From Methanothrix sp. (lineage in GTDB: Archaea > Halobacteriota > Methanosarcinia > Methanotrichales > Methanotrichaceae): DNA of 64,000 nt. The stretch covers positions 64,001 through 128,000 of the forward strand of contig OY821645.1 of assembly GCA_963682135.1 (NCBI GenBank), written 5' to 3'. Position 1 is the stretch's first letter. Each line of letters begins with the position of its first letter. The notes under the pieces are model-generated. The model was not told the DNA's origin. It did not search any database and saw only the letters and a list, made by a program, of their open reading frames with translations. Below, in pieces: positions 1,236 through 40,504 of the stretch. The translations under genes were made by a program, and so were the position numbers.

Positions 1236-3191
1236 ATGTGGATCTTCGACTCTTACTACAAGGGCTGCGTGGAGCTGTGGGGCCGGGAGAGAGGTCTCAC
1301 CAAAGCCAGTGCGACCTATCCTCAATCGTTCTACATGCATCTTCCGGACCCTCCCGCTCACAGGGAGATGATCGAGGCTCTGGAGAGTCGCTTCAAGGTA
1401 GAGGATTGTAGCTTTAAAACCATCTTCGGCACTTTTCAGGGCCACAGGATATATGCCGACCGAAAAGTTGCCGAGAAGATCGAGATCCAAACCCGCCACC
1501 AGGTCGAACTCTACAATGTCGATGTCCGCCAGGACCAGCGTTATCTGGCCGAGCACAATCTCTTCCCCTGTGGAGATGGTGATGATTCCCGGTTCTCGCC
1601 CGACTTTGCCGTTCCCCTGACCAGCCTGAAGCTGCAGCTGGCCGGTGATCCTTCTCTGCCCGGGGATATCAGCATCAGTCGCATTGAAATCCAGAATGGC
1701 CGCAAGCGAAGGCTGGAAGGATCGGAGAGAATGGTTCTCTGTGACCTCCTGGATCTCATCAAGGCTCATGATCCCGACCTGATCCTGTGTCCTCATGCCG
1801 ACACCTGGATTCCCATCATCCTCCGCAAGGCCAAAAGATACGGCCTGCAGTCCACCATCAGCCGCAGCGGCTTCTTCAAGCCGATGGCCTCCAAGTCCTA
1901 CTGGAGCTATGGAAAGGTGAGCCACAAAGAGGGCGCTCTCATCCCCGAGGGCCGGATACTCATAGACACTGCCAGGAGCTTCGTCTATGCCGAGAGCGGC
2001 CTGAAGGGCGTACTCATGGCCTCCCGGCTCTCCGGTCTCTCGCCGAACCTCACGGCCCGCTTCACGCCCGGAACACTCATCTCCAGCTACGAGGTCTTCG
2101 AGGCGCTGCGCCGGAACATAGCAGTGCCCTTTCGCAAGAGAGATGCAGAGGGCCACAGAAATATTTGCGAGCTGAGGGCCTGCGACAAAGGCGGCATGAT
2201 CTTCCAGCCCGAACCTGGGGTGTACGAGGCCGTCCACCAGATCGATTTCACATCCCTCTATCCCTCGATCATTGTGAAGTACAACCTCTCCCCCGAGACC
2301 ATCAGAGATCCCGAGCAGAAGGGCTTTTTGAGCACCGTTATCTCCTCGCTGCTCAATTTGCGCATCGAGACCAAGAGGCGAAAGAAGATCGACCCGGATT
2401 ATGCCGGCATAGACTCCATCCTTAAGTGGATGCTGGTAACCTGTTTCGGCTACACCGGCTACCGCAATGCCAAGTTCGGCCAGATCCAGGTCCATGAGCG
2501 GATCACTGGTATCTCCCGGGAGCTGCTCATGCAGATCAAGGAGCTGGCCGAGGTAATGGACTTTCAGGTCCTGCACGGCATTGTGGACTGTTTATGGGTT
2601 ATTGGTGAGCCCATAGCCGGCTTCAAGGAAGCTGTGGAGAAGGAGACCGGCATCCTGACGGAGGTGGATTCATACGATTGGATCGCTTTCCTGCCCATGG
2701 CAGACGGCTTTGGTGCCTACAACCGCTACTTTGGGCGGCTGGACACGGGCAAGATGAAGATCCGGGGAGTCATGGCCCGCAAAGCAGATACGCCTGAGTA
2801 CGTGCTGCGCATGCAAAAAGAGCTGTTCGAGATCCTGGCTGGGGCAGGGAGCCGGGAGGAGCTGAGGAGGATGCAGCCAGAGGCGCGAGAGGTGCGCCGG
2901 CGGTACTTGGAGGGGCTTGCAGGGGCAGGTGTAGACATCCGGGAGCTGGCCATTCATCGCCGGGTCAGCAGGCGCAGCTACTCCCGCAGGTGTGCTGAGG
3001 CTATGGCGGTAGCCGCTCACCAGAAGCAGGGTATTGCCCTGGAGCCGGGGATGGAGATAGGCTACGTGGTGAAGGATGCCAAAAGGTGGGAGGTGGAACC
3101 GGATAGGACTGCATCGGAGTACGATGCCGGGTATTACCGCAAACTTCTGGATAAGGCCTGGGAGGAGGTGGCGTATGTATTTACCGTTTGA
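1236..3191 (+). CDS. polB2: Family B DNA polymerase, PolB2 group
   Basis: Motif A QIDFTSLYPSII, motif B LKWMLVTCFGY, and motif C altered to HGIVDC (vs YGDTDS). The exonuclease domain is degenerate. These are PolB2 hallmarks. Confidence 0.88.
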   Translation: MWIFDSYYKGCVELWGRERGLTKASATYPQSFYMHLPDPPAHREMIEALESRFKVEDCSFKTIFGTFQGHRIYADRKVAEKIEIQTRHQVELYNVDVRQDQRYLAEHNLFPCGDGDDSRFSPDFAVPLTSLKLQLAGDPSLPGDISISRIEIQNGRKRRLEGSERMVLCDLLDLIKAHDPDLILCPHADTWIPIILRKAKRYGLQSTISRSGFFKPMASKSYWSYGKVSHKEGALIPEGRILIDTARSFVYAESGLKGVLMASRLSGLSPNLTARFTPGTLISSYEVFEALRRNIAVPFRKRDAEGHRNICELRACDKGGMIFQPEPGVYEAVHQIDFTSLYPSIIVKYNLSPETIRDPEQKGFLSTVISSLLNLRIETKRRKKIDPDYAGIDSILKWMLVTCFGYTGYRNAKFGQIQVHERITGISRELLMQIKELAEVMDFQVLHGIVDCLWVIGEPIAGFKEAVEKETGILTEVDSYDWIAFLPMADGFGAYNRYFGRLDTGKMKIRGVMARKADTPEYVLRMQKELFEILAGAGSREELRRMQPEAREVRRRYLEGLAGAGVDIRELAIHRRVSRRSYSRRCAEAMAVAAHQKQGIALEPGMEIGYVVKDAKRWEVEPDRTASEYDAGYYRKLLDKAWEEVAYVFTV

Positions 3192-5385: not shown

Positions 5386-5774
5386 ATCCAAGCATGTCCT
5401 GCGTTCTGGGCGGCTCACGCCCTGCGGCGCGTTTTTTCGCGCGCGGCATCCCTGCATAGCGGATTACAGGAAATAACTTAAAAGGAAAAGTTAAGATAGT
5501 AGTAATGCCATCTCGCGGATGCACTAGATTTGGCGAGCATGCCCCTGCCGGGCAGGGCCGTCCGGGCCAGACGGATGGACTTAATGGGACGGAGAACGTC
5601 CCATTTTCACGCATCGAGGTGGTGTTCAGTTTCCTAGGAGATGCGTGAAAGGTCTGTGCATATCGAAAAGGGCCTTATGCAACTGTTAACTTTCTGAAAG
5701 TATTAGTATAAGTTGACATTATGCGTGAAAATCGTCTTTTTTTCGATATCTGTGAAGGCCGAAAAATGGCCGCC
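5386..5774 (+). promoter_or_regulatory. Extended leader of CRISPR array 1 (duplicated at 10786-11282)
   Basis: Near-identical to the region upstream of array 2. Contains BRE/TATA-like GGAAAAGTTAAGATA (~5484) and GAAAGTATTAGTATAA (~5696) and abuts the first repeat. Confidence 0.8.
5507..5674 (+). ncRNA. Candidate structured RNA element, copy 1
   Basis: Hairpins CCCTGC/GCAGGG, CCGTC/GACGG, AATGGGACG/CGTCCCATT and TTCACGCATC/GATGCGTGAA, with closing pairing ATGCAC/GTGCAT. It lies just downstream of a TATA-like box. Confidence 0.5.
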
Positions 5775-6471
5775 GTCTCCATGACTGAAAAGTCGTGGCC
5801 GAATTGAAACTAATGTACGTTCTGCGTATCAATGGTTCCCATGGTAGTCTCCATGACTGAAAAGTCGTGGCCGAATTGAAACTAAAAATCAGATACTAAC
5901 GTTTCGGACTCACGGTCAGGTCTCCATGACTGAAAAGTCGTGGCCGAATTGAAACCATTAGCTAACGCAAAAGAATACCTCGCGCTAACTAAGTCTCCAT
6001 GACTGAAAAGTCGTGGCCGAATTGAAACGCTCTGAAAGCTTGCGTTTCTCGCGTTCCATCTCTTTTGTCTCCATGACTGAAAAGTCGTGGCCGAATTGAA
6101 ACCTTTTATCAGCCATTATACAGCTTCTTGTAAACGAGTCTCCATGACTGAAAAGTCGTGGCCGAATTGAAACCTTGGTTCGGCAGGGAATTCTGTGAGG
6201 TTGTCTGACTGTCTCCATGACTGAAAAGTCGTGGCCGAATTGAAACGGAGAGCTCTGACATTAAATCGCCTCCGACCCTCGCCAGTCTCCATGACTGAAA
6301 AGTCGTGGCCGAATTGAAACCATCTACATCATGTAGTTTTTTCAAACTCACCACTTCCCTTGTCTCCATGACTGAAAAGTCGTGGCCGAATTGAAACTTG
6401 TCAAAGTTCTCTTTGAACTTCAACGAGTGGGCATTGTCTCCATGACTGAACAGTCGTGGCCGAACTGAAAC
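5775..6471 (+). CRISPR. CRISPR array 1: 10 repeats, 9 spacers; repeat GTCTCCATGACTGAAAAGTCGTGGCCGAATTGAAAC (36 bp)
   Basis: Identical repeats with 35-41-bp unique spacers and a degenerate last repeat (6436-6471). The ATTGAAAC 3' end and upstream leader give + orientation. Confidence 0.98.
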
Positions 6472-6559
6472 TCTCTATCGTTTTGATATACCTTCAGAAC
6501 GCTATTTGTAGATATGCAGTCAAAAATAAGACGTCCTGCTAATTGAGACGGCCGGGGAC

Positions 6560-6884
6560 GTGCGGCTGGAAAGTGGCGGCGATACCGATTATGAGCTATA
6601 TGAGCTTATAGGCAAACACCCTGGACAGGGCGCTTATGAGCTCTCTAAGCTGAACGGCTGGACTGCAGGCCGCACACACTCATCAATATTGCGATTGGAG
6701 AAAAAAGGGCTCGTATTTGTGGAGCGCATTGTTCAAGGTGGGAGGACAAAGCTTGTGGTTCGTCCCAGGCCATGGCAGAATTTCTTCACACGATGAAATG
6801 CGTCGGCCCGGATACTTCGATGATGTCGAAAAATGGCTGAGCGAACAGAGGGCTGAAGGGCCACTATCACCGTCGGATCATTGA
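6560..6884 (+). pseudogene. Winged-helix DNA-binding protein, probably frameshifted
   Basis: ELIGKHPGQGAYELSKLNGWTAGRTHSSILRLEKKGLV is a wHTH. The frame stops at 6796, but another frame continues DEMRRPGYFDDVEKWLSEQ to 6884. Confidence 0.55.
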
Positions 6885-8630
6885 GACCGCTTTGGAAAAT
6901 ATCTTTCCCAAACCAAATCCGCTCTCATCCTTTAAAGACCAATCCTTTCCCATCTTTGCATCAGTCTCGCAAGGTATGACCTTTAGCATCTCATTTCCTG
7001 CCTGTTCCATTACTTCTTTGAGGAGCTTAGATGCTTTCGTTGCCTGTTTATCCGGAACTTCCAAAAGAATGCTGTCATGAACTGCATTAATAAGCCGAAA
7101 GTCGCTGTACGCAGGGGAAGCAATCTTTTCGTAGAGCCTGCCCAGAGCGATCTTTTGGAGATCAGCCCCTGTCGCCTGCACAGGAGTGTTTATCAGAGCA
7201 TTTCTGTGCTGAGGATCAACATACCTTATGCGTCCCAATGCAGATCTGGAAATTTTGTATGTCTCACTGCCGATAGCAGTAAGCCTTGCTCTATCTGAGA
7301 CCATTTGCTGCCAGCTCTTCAAACCGGGATAGGCGGCATAAAATCTATATAAAAATTCTTTTGCATCATCCTCGGTCAGGCTAGGCAGATTGGAGAGAAT
7401 CATATTTACTCCGCCCCCATAAATGGTCCCATAATTTAAAGTCTTGGCTATCTGCCTCTCTTCATCTGAGATCCTTGTCTTTTGAAAGATGGCCTGTGCC
7501 GTCTGCTTATGGGGATCAAGACCTTTCTTGAAGATATTTTGCATGGCTTTATCTCCGGAGAGCACGGCAATAATCCTCATCTCAATGGCGGAGAAATCCG
7601 CCTCCACGAAAGTCATTCCCTGCGAGGCCACAAAGAGCTTTTTCAGATGCGGCTCCCTTGGGATCTGCTGAATGTTCGGCCTGGAACAGGTGATGCGACC
7701 ACTTCTGCCGCCCAGCTGGGTCAGCCTTGGATAAATTCGACCTTCTCGGGCATTGTCCGTCCAATTTTTTAAAAATCCGATCTGCTGTCTGAGCTTTCTG
7801 TATTCGAGAAGAGAATTTATGAATGTCTCCTCTGGATGCACCAATAATATTCTCTCCAGGTCCGCAGCCGAAGTGCTCTCCAAGTTATATCCGTGGCTAT
7901 GCAACAACTTCTTCACGTGAACTGGATTGCGGGGATTGAATCCGCTCATTTTCTTCGACTTTGCATATTGTTGCAGCTTCTTCTCCAGTCTGTCCTTTTC
8001 TTTGACCAGACTCTCCAAAAGCCGCCGGCCTTTATCTTCGTTGAAGCCTATCCCGTTGTATTCGATCTCCACTAATGCGGGCAGTGCCTCAAATTCGATT
8101 TTGGCAACTTTTTCCAAACCCTGCATCTTGAGGAGAGCCCTCTGTTTAGCCTGGATCCTCTCCAGAATTGCGCAGGCTCTGGCGGCATAATCCATCTCTC
8201 TCGCCGAAGGCTTGCTTCCTTTGTCTGATGCTTTAGGACTGTCGTCAAAATGCCATCCCAATAAATCCCTGCAAATTGATTGCAGAGAATATTCTTGATA
8301 GGAAAGGCCATTGTCTAGAAGCTGTGAGGCCAGCATGGTATCCCAGAGATTGGGAAGCTCAAGTCTACTGTCGAAAATCTTTCTGATGACACCTAGATCG
8401 AACAGCAGATTATATCCCACAACCTGACAAGACGGGCACTCCAACAAAGGGATGATCTCGTCAAGCAGCTCTGGAGCCAGCAAAGCCTGACCGTAGTCAC
8501 CTGCAATCGAGATGAACCTGAGATTGGATGAGCTTGGCATGGAACCTGCGTCTGTACTCAAATGCAGATAGAAGGTGGAGGGCTCACTACGGGGCTTGCA
8601 GGACCAGGAAGAAAGAAGCGCTTTGGCCAT
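6867..8630 (-). CDS. polA: Family A DNA polymerase (3'-5' exo-like + polymerase domains, no 5' nuclease), CRISPR-embedded
   Basis: SGRITCSRPNIQQIP, motif A ADFSAIEMRIIA, motif B RQIAKTLNYGTIYG, NTPVQATGAD and motif C VHDSILLEV. RBS GAGGAGGT before the ATG. Confidence 0.93.
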   Translation of the reverse strand: MAKALLSSWSCKPRSEPSTFYLHLSTDAGSMPSSSNLRFISIAGDYGQALLAPELLDEIIPLLECPSCQVVGYNLLFDLGVIRKIFDSRLELPNLWDTMLASQLLDNGLSYQEYSLQSICRDLLGWHFDDSPKASDKGSKPSAREMDYAARACAILERIQAKQRALLKMQGLEKVAKIEFEALPALVEIEYNGIGFNEDKGRRLLESLVKEKDRLEKKLQQYAKSKKMSGFNPRNPVHVKKLLHSHGYNLESTSAADLERILLVHPEETFINSLLEYRKLRQQIGFLKNWTDNAREGRIYPRLTQLGGRSGRITCSRPNIQQIPREPHLKKLFVASQGMTFVEADFSAIEMRIIAVLSGDKAMQNIFKKGLDPHKQTAQAIFQKTRISDEERQIAKTLNYGTIYGGGVNMILSNLPSLTEDDAKEFLYRFYAAYPGLKSWQQMVSDRARLTAIGSETYKISRSALGRIRYVDPQHRNALINTPVQATGADLQKIALGRLYEKIASPAYSDFRLINAVHDSILLEVPDKQATKASKLLKEVMEQAGNEMLKVIPCETDAKMGKDWSLKDESGFGLGKIFSKAVSMIRR

Positions 8631-8693
8631 TAGACCTCCTCAGATAAATCTTCATTATATGATTCTATTTCTGAAAACCTATATATCTTTCTG

Positions 8694-10451
8694 ATGATAG
8701 TAGTAGCTTGGGGTTTTTTGGTGATGGATAATTCTGGATCAAAAGCGGATGTGCCGGATCTAATCCCGGCCCGTATGCTCAGCGAGTTCGCCTACTGTCC
8801 ACGGCTCTGCTATATTGAGTGGATCGACGGCGAGTTCGCAGATAATGAAGAGACGGTGGATGGCAGGTTTGTGCATCGCCGGGTGGACGCAAAGGAAGAT
8901 ACTATTCCCGATGATGAGATCGAAACTGAGACCGAAACAGTTCACGCTCGATCTCTGTTTCTCACCGGCCCCAAGGTTGGAATTACCTGCCGGATAGATC
9001 TCCTGGAAGGTGATGGCGAAAGGGTGACGCCTGTAGATTACAAGAGAGGCAAAGCACCTAACATTCCCGAAGGAGCATATGAACCGGATCGCGTCCAGCT
9101 TTGCGCTCAGGGCCTGGTTCTGAGAGAGAACGGTTTCAAATGCGACAGTGGCATCGTCTACTTTGTCCGCTCCAAAAAGCGGATTTCTATAGCTTTTGAT
9201 AAAGCCCTGATTAAGAGGGCAAACGATCTTATCTCCGATCTGAGGAAAATTGCAGAAAAGCGAGAGATTCCTCCACCATTGCAGGATAGCCCCAAGTGCA
9301 ATCGCTGTTCTCTGGCGGGCATTTGCCTTCCTGACGAGGTAAACCTTCTGCGGGACTCGGATGGAAAAGAAGCTGGTGAGGGTGGGCTCCTGGGCAAGAT
9401 CAGGAGGCTTCTCCCGGCCAGAGACGACACTATGCCGGTCTACGTTGTGGGGCACGGCAATACCGTTCGCAAGAAAGGTGACCTCCTGGAGATATGTTCC
9501 CGAGATGACGTCGCAGCAGGCAAAGAAGGCAGAATAAAGGAAGTGAGGTTAAGAGAGATCTCTCAGGTGAACCTTTTTGGTGGAGTTGATGTCTCGATGC
9601 CTGCCCTTGTCGAGCTTATGCAGCGGGGCATCCCCGTCCTGCACTTCACAAGGGGTGGATGGTTTCAGGGATTGAGCGCCGGGCATACTCATAAAAATGT
9701 GCAGCTACGCATGCGACAGTTTGCCTGGGCTGAGGACCGCAAGAAATCTCTGTCCATCGCTCGCGCTATAGTCTACGGCAAGATCAAAAACTGCCGGATT
9801 CAGGTACGCAGGAACTACGCTAAAGCCAACGCCCAGTCTCCTGATAATGCACTGGACAGGCTGGAGCGTCTTTCCAAGGATGCCAGAAATGCGTCCGGCA
9901 TCGATAAGCTTCTGGGAATCGAAGGCGCGGCAGCCGAAGTTTACTTTGGCTGTCTTGGTCAAATGCTCAAAGCCGATCGTGGATTCTCCTTTGAAAACAG
10001 GAATAGGAGGCCGCCCAAAGACCCTGTTAACGCGGTTCTTTCCTATATCTATGCAGTGCTTGCCAAAGACATGTTTGTCTCCCTCCTGGCGGTAGGCTTC
10101 GATCCGTATCTCGGTTTCTACCACCAGCCCCGCTATGGCCGCCCGGCTCTGGCGCTGGACATGATGGAAGAGTTTCGGCCGGTGATTGCTGATGCCACTG
10201 CCATCACCCTATTCAACAAAGGTGAGCTATCAGATAAGGATTTTATCAAGACGGGAATCGGAGTGTCTCTGACCTCCAAGGGAAAGAAAAAGGTCATAGC
10301 AGGCTACGAGAGACGCATGGAGACGGAGATCACTCATCCCCTCTTCGGATACAGCGTCAGCTACAGGAGGGTTCAGGAAGTGCAGGCGCGGCTGTTGTCC
10401 AGAACAATTTCCGGTGAGATCAAGGAGTATCCTGCATTTTACAGGAAGTGA
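8694..10451 (+). CDS. cas4-cas1: Cas4-Cas1 fusion (type I-G/I-U-like); likely start at 8724
   Basis: Cas4 motifs: YCPR, RIDLL..PVDYKRG, QLCAQ, CNRCSLAGIC. Cas1 motifs: GIEGAAA, NRRPPKDPVNAVLS, FYH, DMMEEFRP. Confidence 0.95.
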   Translation: MIVVAWGFLVMDNSGSKADVPDLIPARMLSEFAYCPRLCYIEWIDGEFADNEETVDGRFVHRRVDAKEDTIPDDEIETETETVHARSLFLTGPKVGITCRIDLLEGDGERVTPVDYKRGKAPNIPEGAYEPDRVQLCAQGLVLRENGFKCDSGIVYFVRSKKRISIAFDKALIKRANDLISDLRKIAEKREIPPPLQDSPKCNRCSLAGICLPDEVNLLRDSDGKEAGEGGLLGKIRRLLPARDDTMPVYVVGHGNTVRKKGDLLEICSRDDVAAGKEGRIKEVRLREISQVNLFGGVDVSMPALVELMQRGIPVLHFTRGGWFQGLSAGHTHKNVQLRMRQFAWAEDRKKSLSIARAIVYGKIKNCRIQVRRNYAKANAQSPDNALDRLERLSKDARNASGIDKLLGIEGAAAEVYFGCLGQMLKADRGFSFENRNRRPPKDPVNAVLSYIYAVLAKDMFVSLLAVGFDPYLGFYHQPRYGRPALALDMMEEFRPVIADATAITLFNKGELSDKDFIKTGIGVSLTSKGKKKVIAGYERRMETEITHPLFGYSVSYRRVQEVQARLLSRTISGEIKEYPAFYRK

Positions 10452-10457
10452 TTTGAT

Positions 10458-10760
10458 TTGAGTGGAAGGAATTGTTATGTTGTAAGCTACGACATCATGG
10501 ACCAGAGACGATTACAGAAGGTCCACAAGACTATGAAGGGCTTCGGTGAGGCAATCCATTATTCGGTTTTTCGCTGTGATCTGACCGGCAAAGGCCGTGT
10601 GGAAATGGTGGCGGCGCTCACCGACCTGATCAAGCACGATCAGGACAGGATCATGATACTGGATCTTGGACCTATGGACGGCAGAGCGGATCAGAGGATT
10701 GAATTTCTCGGCATTCATGCCAAAGATCCGGACTCGCCCCGAAGGGCCGTTATCATATAA
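10458..10760 (+). CDS. cas2: CRISPR-associated endonuclease Cas2
   Basis: YVVSYDI..RRLQKVHKTMKGFG..IHYSVFRCDL, directly after cas1. Confidence 0.95.
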   Translation: MSGRNCYVVSYDIMDQRRLQKVHKTMKGFGEAIHYSVFRCDLTGKGRVEMVAALTDLIKHDQDRIMILDLGPMDGRADQRIEFLGIHAKDPDSPRRAVII

Positions 10761-10905
10761 ATTTTGGGTGCATCCAGCACGTTGAATCCAAGCCTGCCCG
10801 GCGTTAAGGGTGCCCGGGATCTACCGCGCGTTTTTTCGCGCGCGGCACCCCAGAAGATTGGATGAAATAAAACAAATAAGATCCATTGTAGTCCAATGCA
10901 GGTCA

Positions 10906-11012
10906 GACAATATCGCTGGGGAAAGTTTAGATAGTAGTAATCGCTAAAAGATCCTTCAAAATCTATTTCATGTTCCGACAATATCGCTGGGGAAAGTTTA
11001 GATAGTAGTAAT
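10906..11012. repeat. Perfect 36-bp direct repeat GACAATATCGCTGGGGAAAGTTTAGATAGTAGTAAT x2, separated by 35 bp
   Basis: Copies at 10906-10941 and 10977-11012. Confidence 0.92.
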
Positions 11013-11182
11013 GCCATCTCGCGGATGCACAAGATTTGGCGAGCATGCCCCTGCCGGGCAGGGCCGTCCGGGCCAGACGGATGGACTTAATGGGACGGAG
11101 AACGTCCCTTTTTTCCGCGCATCGAGGTGGTGTTCAGTTTCCCAGGAGATGCGCAGAAGGTCTGTGCATATCGAAAAAGACC
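11013..11182 (+). ncRNA. Candidate structured RNA element, copy 2
   Basis: Same hairpins as copy 1. ACGCATC/GATGCGT becomes GCGCATC/GATGCGC, a compensatory change. Confidence 0.5.
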
Positions 11183-11282
11183 ATTTGCAGACAGTAACTT
11201 TCTGAAAGTATTGTAATAAGTTAACAACATGCGCTGAAATTGACTTTTTTTCGATATCTGTGAAGGCCGAAAAATGGCCGCT

Positions 11283-12494
11283 GTCTCCATGACTGAAAAG
11301 TCGTGGCCGAATTGAAACCACCATATTGATAGCATGGTTGCAACTATATTTTTTTCATGTCTCCATGACTGAAAAGTCGTGGCCGAATTGAAACATTACC
11401 GGACGTTTTGTCCGTGTCTAACCCGAACATGGTTGTCTCCATGACTGAAAAGTCGTGGCCGAATTGAAACCTCAACGAATAGTTGTTCTTCTCTTCGTGC
11501 CTGTGGTCTCCATGACTGAAAAGTCGTGGCCGAATTGAAACGAGCCGGATTGGTCGAGGGGCATCCAGCTCATCAAGTCTCCATGACTGAAAAGTCGTGG
11601 CCGAATTGAAACCCTTTGATGTTTGTTTCAAGGAACAGAAGTAAGGTTGTCTCCATGACTGAAAAGTCGTGGCCGAATTGAAACGTCCGAGATTGTAAAG
11701 GAAAGACATAAATCTTGACGTCTCCATGACTGAAAAGTCGTGGCCGAATTGAAACACGTTTACCGTTACGATATCACATTCTGCATAAATGGTCTCCATG
11801 ACTGAAAAGTCGTGGCCGAATTGAAACTGGTTTGCATATGTAGTATCCCACAATGCCATAGCCTGAGTCTCCATGACTGAAAAGTCGTGGCCGAATTGAA
11901 ACCTTGTTCGAGCTGTGCAGATTACATGAATCCGCACCGTCTCCATGACTGAAAAGTCGTGGCCGAATTGAAACTTGCCAATTTTTTGGAGCTCTTCCAA
12001 AATATACCTGGTCTCCATGACTGAAAAGTCGTGGCCGAATTGAAACTCCATTGTTACTCTCACGATTGACACCTTCTATTTTTTCAGTCTCCATGACTGA
12101 AAAGTCGTGGCCGAATTGAAACTATTTCTCGGTGCAAGAACCTCAACTTTCGCCATCTGTCTCCATGACTGAAAAGTCGTGGCCGAATTGAAACCTTCTT
12201 TTCGGTTGTTTTGAATACCGAACTGAAAAATTGTGTCTCCATGACTGAAAAGTCGTGGCCGAATTGAAACGCAGAATATCAATTTTTAAGTTTTTCGCTT
12301 TCTTTGACCGTCTCCATGACTGAAAAGTCGTGGCCGAATTGAAACTTCTTTCACTTCCATAAAACTCACTCTCCGTGAACGTCTCCATGACTGAAAAGTC
12401 GTGGCCGAATTGAAACCATCCTCAATACCGAACTGCTTCATACTTTGTCTCATCCGGAGTCTCCATGACTGGAAAGTCGTGGTCGAATTGAAAT
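11283..12494 (+). CRISPR. CRISPR array 2: 17 repeats, 16 spacers, same 36-bp repeat
   Basis: Identical repeats with 35-42-bp spacers and a degenerate terminal repeat at 12459-12494. Confidence 0.98.
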
Positions 12495-12827
12495 AGCCAG
12501 ACGTTTGTGGGGGTCCAATCGCGTGAGATGAAAATAAAATATTAGATAATCTTTTCAAAATTAAAATTTAAATGCATTCAACAAAAAAACTTATCTATAA
12601 GTAAAAATATTGCTAGACGAGGAAGCAAAATTGAGCTGCGCTGAATTTGAAGGAAAATTTGACTTTAAGTTATTCTTCAAAGCAGATATAGTCCGCAAGC
12701 TTGTCTGTTCTCTGCATGCATTTACAGGAAGAAGTGCCGCATCAAACGCCATCCTTGGGCCGATAAATGCGTCAGTTGGAATTGAAACAATGATTAGTCA
12801 ATTGTCATTTCTTGGCAGCGCAAGAGG

Positions 12828-13616
12828 ATGCCGATGAGGCCCACAGTGGCTCGCTTTGCTGTGACCGGCCAGAAGCTACCGCATCTAACAGAGACCATTA
12901 TTCTGGCGGAGAGGGTCCATGCAGCTCTGGTTCGCCTCTCCGACGGCTCTACTGTTTTCTCGGGATGTGATGAGCAGGGAAAGCCATTAGATGGGCATGG
13001 CCATGCCCATATCTTTTGCGAATCCAATATTGAATCCGGAAAATCCAATGAAGGCAAGATTACTCATATTACCATTTACGCTTCAATGGGATTTAGCTCT
13101 GAAGATATGCAGGCTCTGGAGAACCTCAGAGAGATCTGGGGAAGTAAAGACCCAGCGGTTCGTCTCCTTTTGCAGGGGCTGGGCAGCAGGGAGAACTCTT
13201 GCGGCCCGGACCCTGAGCGAGGCCACTGCCCGCTCTTGGCGAAGTCGAGAACCTGGGTCTCTCGCACGCCCTTCCTGCCTACGCGCCACCCCAAGGTCAC
13301 GCGGGCGGGCGTGCCCAAGTGCAACGCGCGGGGCTTGCAGATCGGCTCCCCGGAGCACGATCTCTTGCGGCTGCTGGAGCTGGCAGGACTTCCGGCACCG
13401 GTGGTTCTGGAGCCGGTGGCCGGCACAATCTTGGGCGTACGGACGGTTCCCTGGGCGAGCTTCGCCTGCCGGAGGAGCGGAGATGAGGGAAGGCAGGCAG
13501 CGGGGGCGGCACGCGGCTTTCGCATGGAATTTGCGGAAGAGGTGCAGGGGCCGGTGGCGGTGGGGTATGCGAGCCACTTTGGGATGGGGGGATTTGGGGC
13601 GGGTAGACCCAAATAA
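12828..13616 (+). CDS. csb2: Csb2 (type I-G Cas5/Cas6) C-terminal, Cas6-like half
   Basis: FSGCDEQGKPLDGHGHAHI, SRTWVSRTPF and the C-terminal G-rich loop GPVAVGYASHFGMGGF. At 262 aa it is roughly half of a full Csb2. Confidence 0.8.
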   Translation: MPMRPTVARFAVTGQKLPHLTETIILAERVHAALVRLSDGSTVFSGCDEQGKPLDGHGHAHIFCESNIESGKSNEGKITHITIYASMGFSSEDMQALENLREIWGSKDPAVRLLLQGLGSRENSCGPDPERGHCPLLAKSRTWVSRTPFLPTRHPKVTRAGVPKCNARGLQIGSPEHDLLRLLELAGLPAPVVLEPVAGTILGVRTVPWASFACRRSGDEGRQAAGAARGFRMEFAEEVQGPVAVGYASHFGMGGFGAGRPK

Positions 13617-13734
13617 ATTAACCCTTGAGAAAATCTTATCACCAAAGGGATAGTAGTATTGGAGAGAGATCATGAGAGAAGAATCGACTATGAAGCCCAT
13701 CTAATATCTGAATACCTGGATTTGAAGTACATGT

Positions 13735-14055
13735 ATGATCTATTTGATCAAGCCTTCCTGGCAAGATCCTGAAGATGAGAACGTTATCAAATCTCCGAGA
13801 GCTGGAAATATCACTCCGAGATTGGGAAAGATACCGGCGCTATTCTTTACAGGACATCAAGAATTTTTTGGCGATATTGAAAAACGTCGCGCAATTGATT
13901 CGCCAATTCCTGTAATTACTTCAGATGGCTCATTTTCAGTAACTCAAGTACACGATCCAAATATCATGATTTATCATTGGCACCACCACGCTCGCACCAC
14001 CATAGGTGCACCAACTATGGAATCAACAGAACCATTTGACGCTATCTTTATATAG
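13735..14055 (+). CDS. Hypothetical protein or gene fragment
   Basis: 106-aa ORF in an AT-rich gap with no recognised motif. Confidence 0.3.
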   Translation: MIYLIKPSWQDPEDENVIKSPRAGNITPRLGKIPALFFTGHQEFFGDIEKRRAIDSPIPVITSDGSFSVTQVHDPNIMIYHWHHHARTTIGAPTMESTEPFDAIFI

Positions 14056-39226: not shown

Positions 39227-40504
39227 ATGATACGGGAACGATTGTCGTTGGTCATAGTCTTTTCTTTATTATCAATATGTATCGCTACAGCTTCGTCGGA
39301 GGCGGGATCTGATGCTAATTCAATTTCAGCAAGCAACACGCCTCTATTTGATTACAGATACAATCAGGTTGCAGAAGATTTAGGACTCTTGAAAAACGGC
39401 GCTTCCGAAAGCAAACTTGAATATGGGAGCATTGAGACTGCAAGCTTAACCCCTCTGGATATCCCTCAGAAAAAAGGCTGTAGACTCCAAATCAAGCAAG
39501 CTGACCTCACAATGGGTGTCTGCCAGTGGGAGACCGAGCAGACCTGCTTTGATAGCTGCGGCAGCACCTGTTCTGGTACCTGCGGCGGAACTTGCGGTAA
39601 CACATGTGGTGACACTTGTAGTGGTACCTGTTTGCTCAGCTGCCGGACTTGCATTCTCTCGTGCGGTGCAGACACCTGCGGCAGCACCTGCCAGGATAGC
39701 TGCGGTGGTTGCGGTCAAACATTGAGTTACACATGTGGGGATACTTGCGGGAATACCTGCAGAGACACTTGCATACGCACCTGTAGCAACACCTGTGCAA
39801 ATACATGTGGGCAAACGTGTCGCGGCACTTGTGCACGCACTTGCAGCAACACCTGTGCAAACACTTGTGGTCAAACTTGTGCCAATACATGTGGACAAAC
39901 CTGTCACAACACTTGCTTTGCCACCTGTCAGATGACCTGTGCCCGAACATGTCTGGCGACATGCTCGGCTACTTGCGCAGCTACTTGCCTGGCCACCTGC
40001 CAGCCGACATGTTCCGCTACTTGCGGCCCATATTGCGCAGGATCTCAAGCGGCTGCTCCTCTCAGTTCAAACGCTCCCCCGATGGCAAAGTCATCAACCA
40101 AGGCCCCTTTAATGGCGGAACAAAATTCGCTCAGGTCCTACAATGTTGTGGCAAATCCGCCGACATCGGTCAGTTATTTGGGAGCATATATTCCCTGGAC
40201 AGTCTTCCAGCAAAGCTTCTCTGGAAAAGAGATCTACGCCTGGGTTGAGACTGAGGGTGGCTGGGATATAGTCGCAAAGACACCAAAAGGCACATGGGTG
40301 CGCGAGTTCGTTTTCGTTCCGTCAAATGGAAATATGATCTTAAATGAAATCGCACCTGATGGAAATACTCGCAGCCAGAAATTCGAACAGGTAGTAGAGG
40401 GATACAAATATATCTGGATCTATGCGGGAAATCCGGGATATTACGTAAGCACTTTCGGAAATATTGACCAAAAAGGCAACAATGTGACCCTCGAAGTTTA
40501 CTGA
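39227..40504 (+). CDS. Secreted protein with a long CXXX (mostly T-C-x-x) repeat tract and a C-terminal beta domain
   Basis: Signal peptide and ~42 Cys at 4-residue spacing (about 39520-40036). C-terminus ends GNNVTLEVY. Confidence 0.8.
   Translation: MIRERLSLVIVFSLLSICIATASSEAGSDANSISASNTPLFDYRYNQVAEDLGLLKNGASESKLEYGSIETASLTPLDIPQKKGCRLQIKQADLTMGVCQWETEQTCFDSCGSTCSGTCGGTCGNTCGDTCSGTCLLSCRTCILSCGADTCGSTCQDSCGGCGQTLSYTCGDTCGNTCRDTCIRTCSNTCANTCGQTCRGTCARTCSNTCANTCGQTCANTCGQTCHNTCFATCQMTCARTCLATCSATCAATCLATCQPTCSATCGPYCAGSQAAAPLSSNAPPMAKSSTKAPLMAEQNSLRSYNVVANPPTSVSYLGAYIPWTVFQQSFSGKEIYAWVETEGGWDIVAKTPKGTWVREFVFVPSNGNMILNEIAPDGNTRSQKFEQVVEGYKYIWIYAGNPGYYVSTFGNIDQKGNNVTLEVY

Follow-up and report, generated by a model that had tools for sequence, protein, structure and literature searches.

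CRISPR-associated primase-polymerases (CAPPs) are AEP/PrimPol enzymes that are able to prime. To our knowledge, DNA polymerase I (Pol I) is normally wanting in archaea, and we know of no work on which polymerase completes spacer integration in these organisms. In Escherichia coli, polA is needed in naive as well as in primed adaptation, with gap filling as the reason proposed in the excerpts of the two reports used here (PMC4678826; PMC9048733). Large-scale clustering has also linked adaptation modules with DNA polymerases (Altae-Tran et al. 2023, PMC10910872; excerpts). Here we describe PolA1, a family A DNA polymerase encoded in a CRISPR adaptation locus of the archaeon Methanothrix sp. The stretch of DNA analyzed (hereafter the window; contig OY821645.1) is 64,000 nt long and comes from a complete 3.04-Mb genome; coordinates of open reading frames (ORFs) are positions in the window. 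We consider it likely that PolA1 is functionally linked to CRISPR adaptation in some way. Our more specific reading, to which we give a probability of roughly 40%, is that PolA1 would be a dedicated adaptation polymerase that fills the repeat gaps left by integration.

We found that PolA1 is consistently encoded next to cas4-cas1. A PolA-like match was present in 44 of 105 Methanotrichaceae species genomes, which yielded 15 near-full-length PolA1 loci, including that of the window (58-100% identical). All 15 had cas4-cas1 within 64-1387 bp of PolA1; in 14 the two genes were divergent, 64-293 bp apart, and in one they were tail-to-tail. Three partial copies were also cas-linked, two of them deletion derivatives (L052 and L056) and one cut by a contig end (L077). 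A scan of metagenome contigs gave 21 near-full-length PolA1 genes, in loci that partly duplicate those of the genomes, and a divergent cas4-cas1 was found at 71-299 bp in 20 of the 20 that had at least 286 bp of upstream sequence. Eight PolA matches on short contigs were viewed with only ~1.5 kb of flank (G053:C303, G040:C180, G062:C188, G069:C158, G074:C199, G058:C197, G037:C142 and G058:C319). In a scan of one genome per species (185,579 species), the PolA1-type polymerase was confined to Methanotrichaceae records, except for four bacterial matches at 26-31% identity. A first-pass annotation of the window had taken PolA1 for a dedicated CRISPR-associated enzyme, not a chance neighbor, and had proposed collecting homologs and counting those near cas genes. 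The counts from the intact orthologs and the informative metagenome loci, together with the Cas4-Cas1 clade described below, bear out this view: the close homologs were all cas-linked. The annotation had put forward the filling of integration gaps, the making of double-stranded prespacers from ssDNA and the copying of RNA as candidate activities; it had recognized neither the type III-B context nor the predicted loss of exonuclease activity.

It is very improbable that PolA1 is an ordinary host repair polymerase that lies near CRISPR genes by accident. In favor of such an enzyme, matches to Pfam DNA_pol_A are unusually frequent here (43 of 104 Methanotrichaceae genomes vs 18 of 196 genomes from other families of the class). 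However, PolA is patchy within the Methanotrichaceae and so is no core gene, and the intact PolA1 genes are without exception cas-linked. In addition, exonuclease motifs are intact in the 12 PolA genes that we examined from the class's other families (ExoII and ExoIII in 12/12, ExoI in the 11/11 with that region), and none of the 12 has a cas4-cas1 or cas2 homolog within ~9 kb.

PolA1 also tracks one lineage of Cas4-Cas1. We built a tree from the Cas4-Cas1 proteins whose alignment covered 500 residues or more (40 proteins), leaving out truncated or frameshifted copies and relabeling L077 and L092 on locus evidence. A single 15-member clade (support 99) contained all 13 of the PolA1-linked copies. 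Both this tree and the PolA tree described below (71 rows, LG+G4) are unrooted and come from quick searches. The clade indicates that PolA1 and its Cas4-Cas1 lineage are inherited together.

At one locus (L040; G081:C1:549230-550885), an intact PolA1 gene lies beside a cas4-cas1 gene that stops and frameshifts divide into at least four pieces. Either the polymerase can outlive its partner or the assembly is in error.

The protein has the features of a family A polymerase. PolA1 matched PF00476 (family A DNA polymerase; 225 bits, cut-off 34.3) over residues 207-565, and residues 21-564 aligned with Pol I of Aquifex pyrophilus (8jrb, 5.6e-59) and also with the apicoplast polymerase. The best NCBIfam model, NF011539 (PRK14975, "bifunctional 3'-5' exonuclease/DNA polymerase"), scored 359 bits, below its cut-off of 640. 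Alignment to PDB 8jrb and 5dku was used to map the catalytic residues, and those of motif A (D345, E350), motif B (K396, Y404) and motif C (D519) are present. Among 52 cluster representatives of the PolA1 clade, the motif A Asp was retained in 51 and the motif A Glu, the motif B Lys and Tyr and the motif C Asp in 52/52. An enzyme with these residues would be expected to polymerize DNA.

In contrast to the polymerase motifs, the exonuclease site of PolA1 is degenerate. A domain at approximately residues 1-200 matched PF01612 (DEDD 3'-5' exonuclease; 36.4 bits, cut-off 23.6). In the window protein the ExoI Asp is replaced by His, the ExoI Glu by Ser and the ExoIII Asp by Ala, and the ExoII Asp alone remains. 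Among the 52 representatives, of which 12 are gene calls truncated at ExoI, the ExoI Asp was His in 40/40, the ExoI Glu was kept in 1/43, the ExoIII Asp was lost in 51/51 and the ExoII Asp was kept in 31/52. We conclude from these substitutions that the 3'-5' exonuclease domain is, by prediction, catalytically dead. PolA1 has no 5' nuclease domain. An AlphaFold model (31 sequences; predicted local distance difference test score 88.2, predicted template modeling score 0.87) was compared with known structures using Foldseek, and the template modeling (TM) score was 0.80 to apPol (9qsc), 0.78 to 8jrb and 0.77 to Klenow (1d8y), with KlenTaq and the Bst large fragment also at 0.7-0.8. The modeled fold is thus Klenow-like. 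The Pfam and NCBIfam matches of PolA1 and Cas4-Cas1 included no reverse transcriptase (RVT) domain, and those of PolA1 no AEP/PrimPol domain. A predicted complex of Cas4-Cas1, Cas2 and PolA1 residues 1-205 (the dead exonuclease domain, the sole part of PolA1 tried) scored 0.00 against a mark of 0.32, a result that has no bearing on binding either way.

We found a second polymerase lineage, PolA2b, in about 20 further Methanotrichaceae loci. PolA2b is ~31% identical to PolA1. Twelve of 20 loci had cas4-cas1/cas2 within 5.6 kb, three more had an array within 3.5 kb, and five had neither, of which three were cut by contig ends. The recurrent order was cas4cas1-cas2-array-(small ORF)-polA2b(-)-csb2 C-half-(MntA/HepT)-cmr1-cas10/cmr2-cmr3-cmr4, with PolA2b at the trailer end of the array, within type III-B (Cmr) loci. 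The PolA2b loci are therefore of type III-B; their adaptation module is of I-G descent, and their Csb2 half is encoded on its own. The small winged helix-turn-helix (wHTH) region beside PolA1 in the window (6483-6862) had 85% DNA identity to a region beside PolA2b (L063, 9399-9789), and the similarity ended at the polymerase gene. This common region indicates that the two polymerases fill the same slot.

PolA was restricted to such III-B-linked derivative modules and never occurred in genuine type I-G loci. The 13 loci of a PolA-less Cas4-Cas1 clade were genuine type I-G; in two of them (L076 and L080) NCBIfam models found Cas3g, Csx17, Csb1 and full-length Csb2. Type I-G effector genes were present in 7 of these 13 loci vs 0 of 27 loci of the PolA-linked clades. 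In contrast, Cmr genes were found solely in the PolA-linked clades (L045, L061, L063, L089 and L092), and cmr genes were also seen in the locus of a relative (L095). The locus flanks were limited, and contig ends at arrays cut many of the loci, which makes absences in single loci weak but not the contrast between clades.

Both PolA1 and PolA2b appear to descend from polymerases of integrative mobile elements. In the PolA tree, PolA1 and PolA2 each formed one clade (support 100), with exonuclease-active sequences between them. The sisters of PolA2b, PolA2a (5 loci), share an operon with genes for a tyrosine integrase, for a wHTH protein and for a DUF3854/DUF927 protein of 919 aa, which has a further match to a phage primase family. 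A helicase (D5_N, DUF5906)-PolA fusion from the PolA1-side group adjoins the same integrase family, and an exonuclease-active relative (41% identical) is encoded 2.3 kb from a primase-helicase homolog with no cas gene nearby. All of the exonuclease residues were intact in 5/5 PolA2a proteins and in 5/6 sisters of PolA1. In PolA2b, the ExoII and ExoIII Asp were lost in 10/10 and the ExoI Asp also in 8. Because intact sequences lie between the two dead clades, and because a dead site is unlikely to be regained, these results are most consistent with two captures that took place separately and after each of which proofreading was lost. A query of viral contigs with two exonuclease-active relatives (P0057 and P0069) gave only matches at 28-30% identity. 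The N-terminal 530 residues of the PolA fusion closest to PolA1 (P0122) had no Pfam or PHROG match and no BLAST similarity to other N-terminal modules.

Three exonuclease-intact or mobile-element PolA genes lie near CRISPR-like arrays. Two are exonuclease-intact genes from other families, one 4.8 kb from an array (L132) and one 3.4 kb from a 65-repeat array (L139); the third is the PolA2a gene of a mobile element, 3.0 kb from a 74-repeat array (L064). None has a cas4-cas1 or cas2 homolog nearby. This proximity may be due to chance or may reflect a wider tendency.

The mobile-element ancestry raises the possibility that polA is a passenger, a leftover of elements that integrated beside arrays, with no role in CRISPR. 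The nearest relatives are indeed in replication modules of mobile elements (marked by a tyrosine integrase, by a DUF3854/DUF927 primase-helicase or by the fusion of a D5_N helicase to the polymerase), and several copies are fragmentary or frameshifted. However, no integrase or primase-helicase lies beside PolA1 in any of its 15 loci, gene order is stable from 100% down to 58% protein identity, PolA1 co-diverges with Cas4-Cas1, and two lineages have reached the same slot. We also estimated the ratio of nonsynonymous to synonymous substitution (dN/dS; pairwise NG86). The ratio was 0.10-0.22 in ten PolA1 pairs with dS up to 1.7, with similar values for the polymerase domain and the dead exonuclease domain; in seven PolA2b pairs it was 0.11-0.20. 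These values are in the range of purifying selection, which indicates that PolA1 and PolA2b are working genes rather than decaying insertions and that the dead domain is still constrained. We therefore regard the passenger explanation as improbable.

Based on these results we suggest the following role for PolA1. The gene would have come by capture from an integrative mobile element of the Methanotrichaceae, where it was part of the replication module. It has since been inherited with one Cas4-Cas1/Cas2 spacer-acquisition lineage, whose modules are derived from type I-G and would serve III-B (Cmr) effectors. Once Cas1-Cas2 has attached a new spacer to the first repeat, two single-stranded gaps, each as long as a repeat, are left. 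PolA1 would extend the free 3' ends across both gaps, and a ligase would seal the duplicated repeat. We chose gap filling as the likeliest single step because an enzyme that is locus-encoded, non-proofreading and Klenow-like fits short fill-in synthesis.

Several observations weigh against this gap-filling role. Four PolA fragments of 70-303 residues (L053, L054, L055 and L057) had no cas neighbors, and several PolA2b genes are broken (L095, L097, L098 and L104). Two of the 15 members of the PolA1-linked Cas4-Cas1 clade lack PolA, and both are nested within the clade, so PolA is dispensable at least sometimes. The first-pass annotation had held that related genomes with this cas locus and no polA would tell against a dedicated enzyme; these two loci are such cases, marginal in number, whereas the separate PolA-less clade represents a different system, genuine type I-G. 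In one of the two (L074), the similarity of cas4-cas1 to that of the window begins at codon 40. This gene thus lacks its first 39 codons, which suggests that the deletion of polA there also damaged Cas4. The linkage in all 15 loci may trace to one ancestral arrangement, since orthologs are kin. The second acidic residue of motif C (HDE) is Ser (HDS) in 52/52 PolA1 representatives, which may affect catalysis; the same Ser is common to 6/6 exonuclease-active sisters, and Glu is found in 7/7 outgroups. Asn replaces the catalytic motif A Asp in one PolA1 representative only, that of cluster P0016 (19 member sequences), whose polymerase may be inactive. Finally, all CRISPR systems need gap filling, yet the genuine I-G loci of the family carry PolA in 0/13; gap filling alone would leave the limitation of PolA to III-B-linked modules unexplained.

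The I-G loci of these organisms do without PolA, and this last observation favors a different role, in which PolA turns invader ssDNA (single-stranded DNA) or RNA into double-stranded prespacers before integration, much as RT-Cas1 (reverse transcriptase-Cas1) does. In type III systems elsewhere, the prespacer role falls to reverse transcriptases that are fused or adjacent to Cas1, and several natural family A enzymes without proofreading have reverse-transcriptase activity. The presence of PolA only with III-B-linked modules (the effector counts above) and the two independent losses of proofreading are what this role would lead one to expect. RT-Cas1 is likewise a feature of CRISPR adaptation modules (PMC5513706; excerpts). 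On the other side, PolA1 carries no sequence sign of the use of RNA templates, a family A polymerase cannot start without a primer while the locus has no primase gene, and no protospacers were found, hence no evidence from spacer strand bias. We consider a prespacer-making role possible but doubtful. A broader version seems to us rather unlikely, namely that the replicative family A polymerase of a mobile element was made into a Cas protein twice, each time with loss of proofreading and only in modules that feed RNA-targeting III-B effectors, and that PolA, as the family A equivalent of RT-Cas1, makes prespacers by copying RNA or ssDNA of invaders.

The arrangement of the window locus is summarized in the table below. 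The first-pass annotation had given the order as array 1, wHTH remnant, polA on the minus strand, cas4-cas1, cas2, array 2 and csb2 half, with polA and cas4-cas1 head-to-head less than 100 bp apart and arrays of identical repeats on both sides. Each element was found at its place, and the ORF coordinates put 63 bp between the two head-to-head genes. The arrays, both on the + strand, share one 36-nt repeat with 27 copies in the window (10 + 17), compared with 0 in 100 shuffles and no copies elsewhere in the 3.04-Mb genome. The final repeat copy is degenerate in both arrays.

Table. Features of the PolA1 locus (window positions)
Feature	Position	Strand	Basis
Array 1 leader	5484..5774	+	Window 5484-5669 aligns to L056 leader, 93%
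CRISPR array 1	5775..6471	+	10 repeats of 36 nt, 9 spacers of 35-41 nt; last repeat with 2 mismatches
Small wHTH-like ORF, between array 1 trailer and polA 3' end	6560..6796	+	MarR_2 E=0.0047, below cut-off
PolA1, 587 aa, family A DNA polymerase	6867..8630	-	Pfam DNA_pol_A 1.7e-66, DNA_pol_A_exo1 5.8e-9
Divergent polA/cas4-cas1 intergenic region, 63 bp, AT-rich	8631..8693	.	Two TATA-like stretches and GGAGG before polA ATG, read by eye
Cas4-Cas1 fusion, type I-G kind (cas4g/cas1g)	8694..10451	+	NCBIfam NF049935, 737 bits vs cut-off 560; Pfam Cas_Cas4 and Cas_Cas1
Cas2	10458..10760	+	Pfam/NCBIfam profile matches
Array 2 leader	10977..11282	+	Window 10977-11183 aligns to same L056 leader, 98.5%
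CRISPR array 2	11283..12494	+	17 repeats, 16 spacers of 35-42 nt; last repeat with 3 mismatches
Stand-alone Csb2 (Cas5-Cas6g) C-terminal half, 262 aa	12828..13616	+	TIGR02165 positions 252-487 of 492, 64.6 bits vs cut-off 45
MntA (last 45 aa) and HepT (30 aa) remnants, after Csb2 half, before thermosome gene	13635..13861	+	Matched with L061 queries

The leaders of the two arrays are homologous, since both align to one leader of L056. The Cys and catalytic columns of Cas4-Cas1 are conserved in the alignment. The short AT-rich spacer suggests that polA and cas4-cas1 may share a divergent promoter; a sigma-70/terminator scan of the locus gave the same counts as shuffles, with a bacterial model that is inapplicable to archaea. 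The wHTH ORF is better described as a conserved small gene than as a remnant (93.5% identical in L056, 91% in L063). The csb2 gene does encode the C-terminal half only, as annotated, but it is not a mere remnant: it is a conserved stand-alone gene (~262-279 aa in relatives), with full-length orthologs of the half in L041, L061, L063 and L065. The Csb2 half also matched PADLOC Cas56g (1.6e-50, positions 225-447 of 449), and it is probably the CRISPR RNA-processing RAMP of such loci, with a putative Cas6-like role.

The window locus has a Cas4-Cas1 fusion and Cas2 of type I-G kind. A tblastn search with Methanotrichaceae Cas3g, Csx17, Csb1 and the N-terminal half of Csb2 found no type I-G effectors in the locus; a TIGR02570 search of the genome gave no match, but neither did its control searches. 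The genes cmr1, cas10/cmr2, cmr3 and cmr4 were absent from the window. In relatives, an intact MntA/HepT pair is followed by cmr1-cas10-cmr3-cmr4. The MntA/HepT remnants are located where relatives carry cmr genes, which indicates that the effector operon was deleted from the window locus. The locus is flanked by the conserved chromosomal genes NrpR and thermosome. None of the 25 window spacers matched the genome or any fetched locus. When spacers from all arrays in the fetched loci were compared with array-masked loci and the genome, the only matches were to leader, trailer and stray-repeat sequences; public virus collections were outside this comparison.

The genome contains other CRISPR loci. 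The window encodes its sole intact Cas4-Cas1 of this kind; a second, unrelated Cas1 is encoded at 2.298 Mb, near arrays of a different repeat. The genome's only type III-B effector operon (cmr genes at 800.4-805.6 kb) is ~730 kb from the window locus, and a 107-residue C-terminal remnant of PolA2b lies beside its cmr1 (G000:C1:806716-807039; 76% identical to L061). At a third CRISPR locus (G000:C1:2947916-2950432), a full Csb2 C-half (55% identical) is accompanied by a Cas4-Cas1 remnant of 38 residues, by Cas2 and by an array of 10 repeats; the repeat is related to that of the window and likewise has ATTGAAAC at its end. It is probably the distant III-B effector that PolA1 and the adaptation module of the window serve.

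A defense role outside adaptation would be another way to account for PolA in III-B systems. In this explanation, PolA would be an error-prone polymerase that poisons the replication of related elements, or a partner of the type III signaling output. PolA stems from a polymerase carried by elements that infect these hosts, and it is found inside III-B loci in which SAVED-domain and MntA/HepT genes also occur. A PADLOC model of PolA tied to defense reverse transcriptases also matched PolA1 (1.9e-37), a match that may reflect general PolA similarity only. Against this explanation, the close divergent pairing ties PolA1 to cas4-cas1 and not to the effectors, which can be distant, as they are here, and spacers from the fetched arrays match no fetched PolA-bearing element. 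A role of this kind is hardly likely.

Three further proteins recur in these loci. A protein of 250-300 aa (c24; L072:6084-6839) is encoded beside polA or cas4-cas1 in at least 8 loci, and one of 132 aa (c41; L061:8378-8776) is encoded between the array and polA2b in 5 loci; neither had a Pfam, NCBIfam, PADLOC or PHROGs match. The third is a 183-aa SAVED-domain protein (L063:11892-12443). Elsewhere in the window, a 651-aa ORF at 1236-3191 matched DNA_pol_B over residues 317-360 (9e-16) and a PADLOC homing endonuclease over residues 402-634 (1.6e-7), and may be a fragment of a family B polymerase that carries an intein. A region of lower G+C content at 39538-39915 contains imperfect 24- and 60-nt tandem repeats (72-80% matches).

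The polymerase that completes spacer integration has so far been inferred largely from one genetic result in E. coli. A polymerase that evolution has twice tied to Cas4-Cas1/Cas2 is a defined candidate for this step. The restriction to III-B and the repeated loss of proofreading bear on how RNA-targeting systems choose or build spacers without a reverse transcriptase, and if PolA does act like a reverse transcriptase, it would provide type III systems with a route to transcript-derived memory without one. PolA is also a clear case of a defense system taking a replication gene from the elements it fights.

PolA1 shares features with several known polymerases and polymerase-containing elements. 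The exonuclease domains of Taq and Bst Pol I are inactive, and their large fragments resemble PolA1 in the Klenow-like two-domain fold with a vestigial, inactive 3'-5' exonuclease (TM 0.7-0.78 to PolA1). However, these are bacterial housekeeping Pol I enzymes that are not cas-linked and that have an extra 5' nuclease domain in the full protein. Casposons carry Cas1 and a family B polymerase between inverted repeats, and so also encode Cas1 beside a DNA polymerase. In contrast, Cas1 in the window is a genuine CRISPR Cas4/Cas1g that is accompanied by Cas2, leaders and arrays; the polymerase is of family A, and the locus lies between chromosomal NrpR and thermosome genes. We rejected the casposon assignment because of the family of the polymerase and because Cas4/Cas1g occurs together with Cas2 and two arrays (no search for terminal inverted repeats was made). 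CAPPs are likewise DNA-synthesizing enzymes that are encoded with cas1/cas2 and implicated in adaptation; PolA1 differs in that it has no AEP domain and would be expected to depend on a primer.

Polymerases attached to adaptation modules are already known, and in this sense the PolA association is not categorically new. A full-text literature search, which did not extend to subscription journals, turned up no account of family A polymerases alongside cas genes, with the "DNA polymerases" of PMC10910872 as the sole possible exception. The main text of that report, in the excerpts used here, gives no polymerase family, host or architecture, and these excerpts contain nothing on exonuclease loss, two lineages or restriction to III-B; its polymerases may overlap with the PolA association, which leaves priority unsettled. 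A preprint on CRISPR-linked genes (10.1101/270033) names DNA polymerase only for the palm domain of Cas10.

The two closest comparisons are with RT-Cas1 and E. coli Pol I. RT-Cas1 and Cas1-adjacent reverse transcriptases are, as excerpted (PMC5513706), polymerases genetically tied to Cas1 in type III contexts that serve as accessories of adaptation, like PolA1. They are group II intron-like enzymes, whereas PolA1 belongs to family A and is not fused to Cas1, and the use of RNA templates could be extended to PolA1 only by analogy. E. coli Pol I is, like PolA1, a family A polymerase; spacer acquisition needs it, and it is the proposed filler of the repeat gaps left by Cas1-Cas2 (PMC4678826; excerpts). 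It is, however, a housekeeping enzyme whose gene lies apart from cas genes and whose 5'-3' and 3'-5' exonucleases are both active. PolA1, in contrast, is encoded within a CRISPR locus, has no 5' nuclease domain and a 3'-5' exonuclease that is predicted to be dead, and appears to have come from a mobile element.

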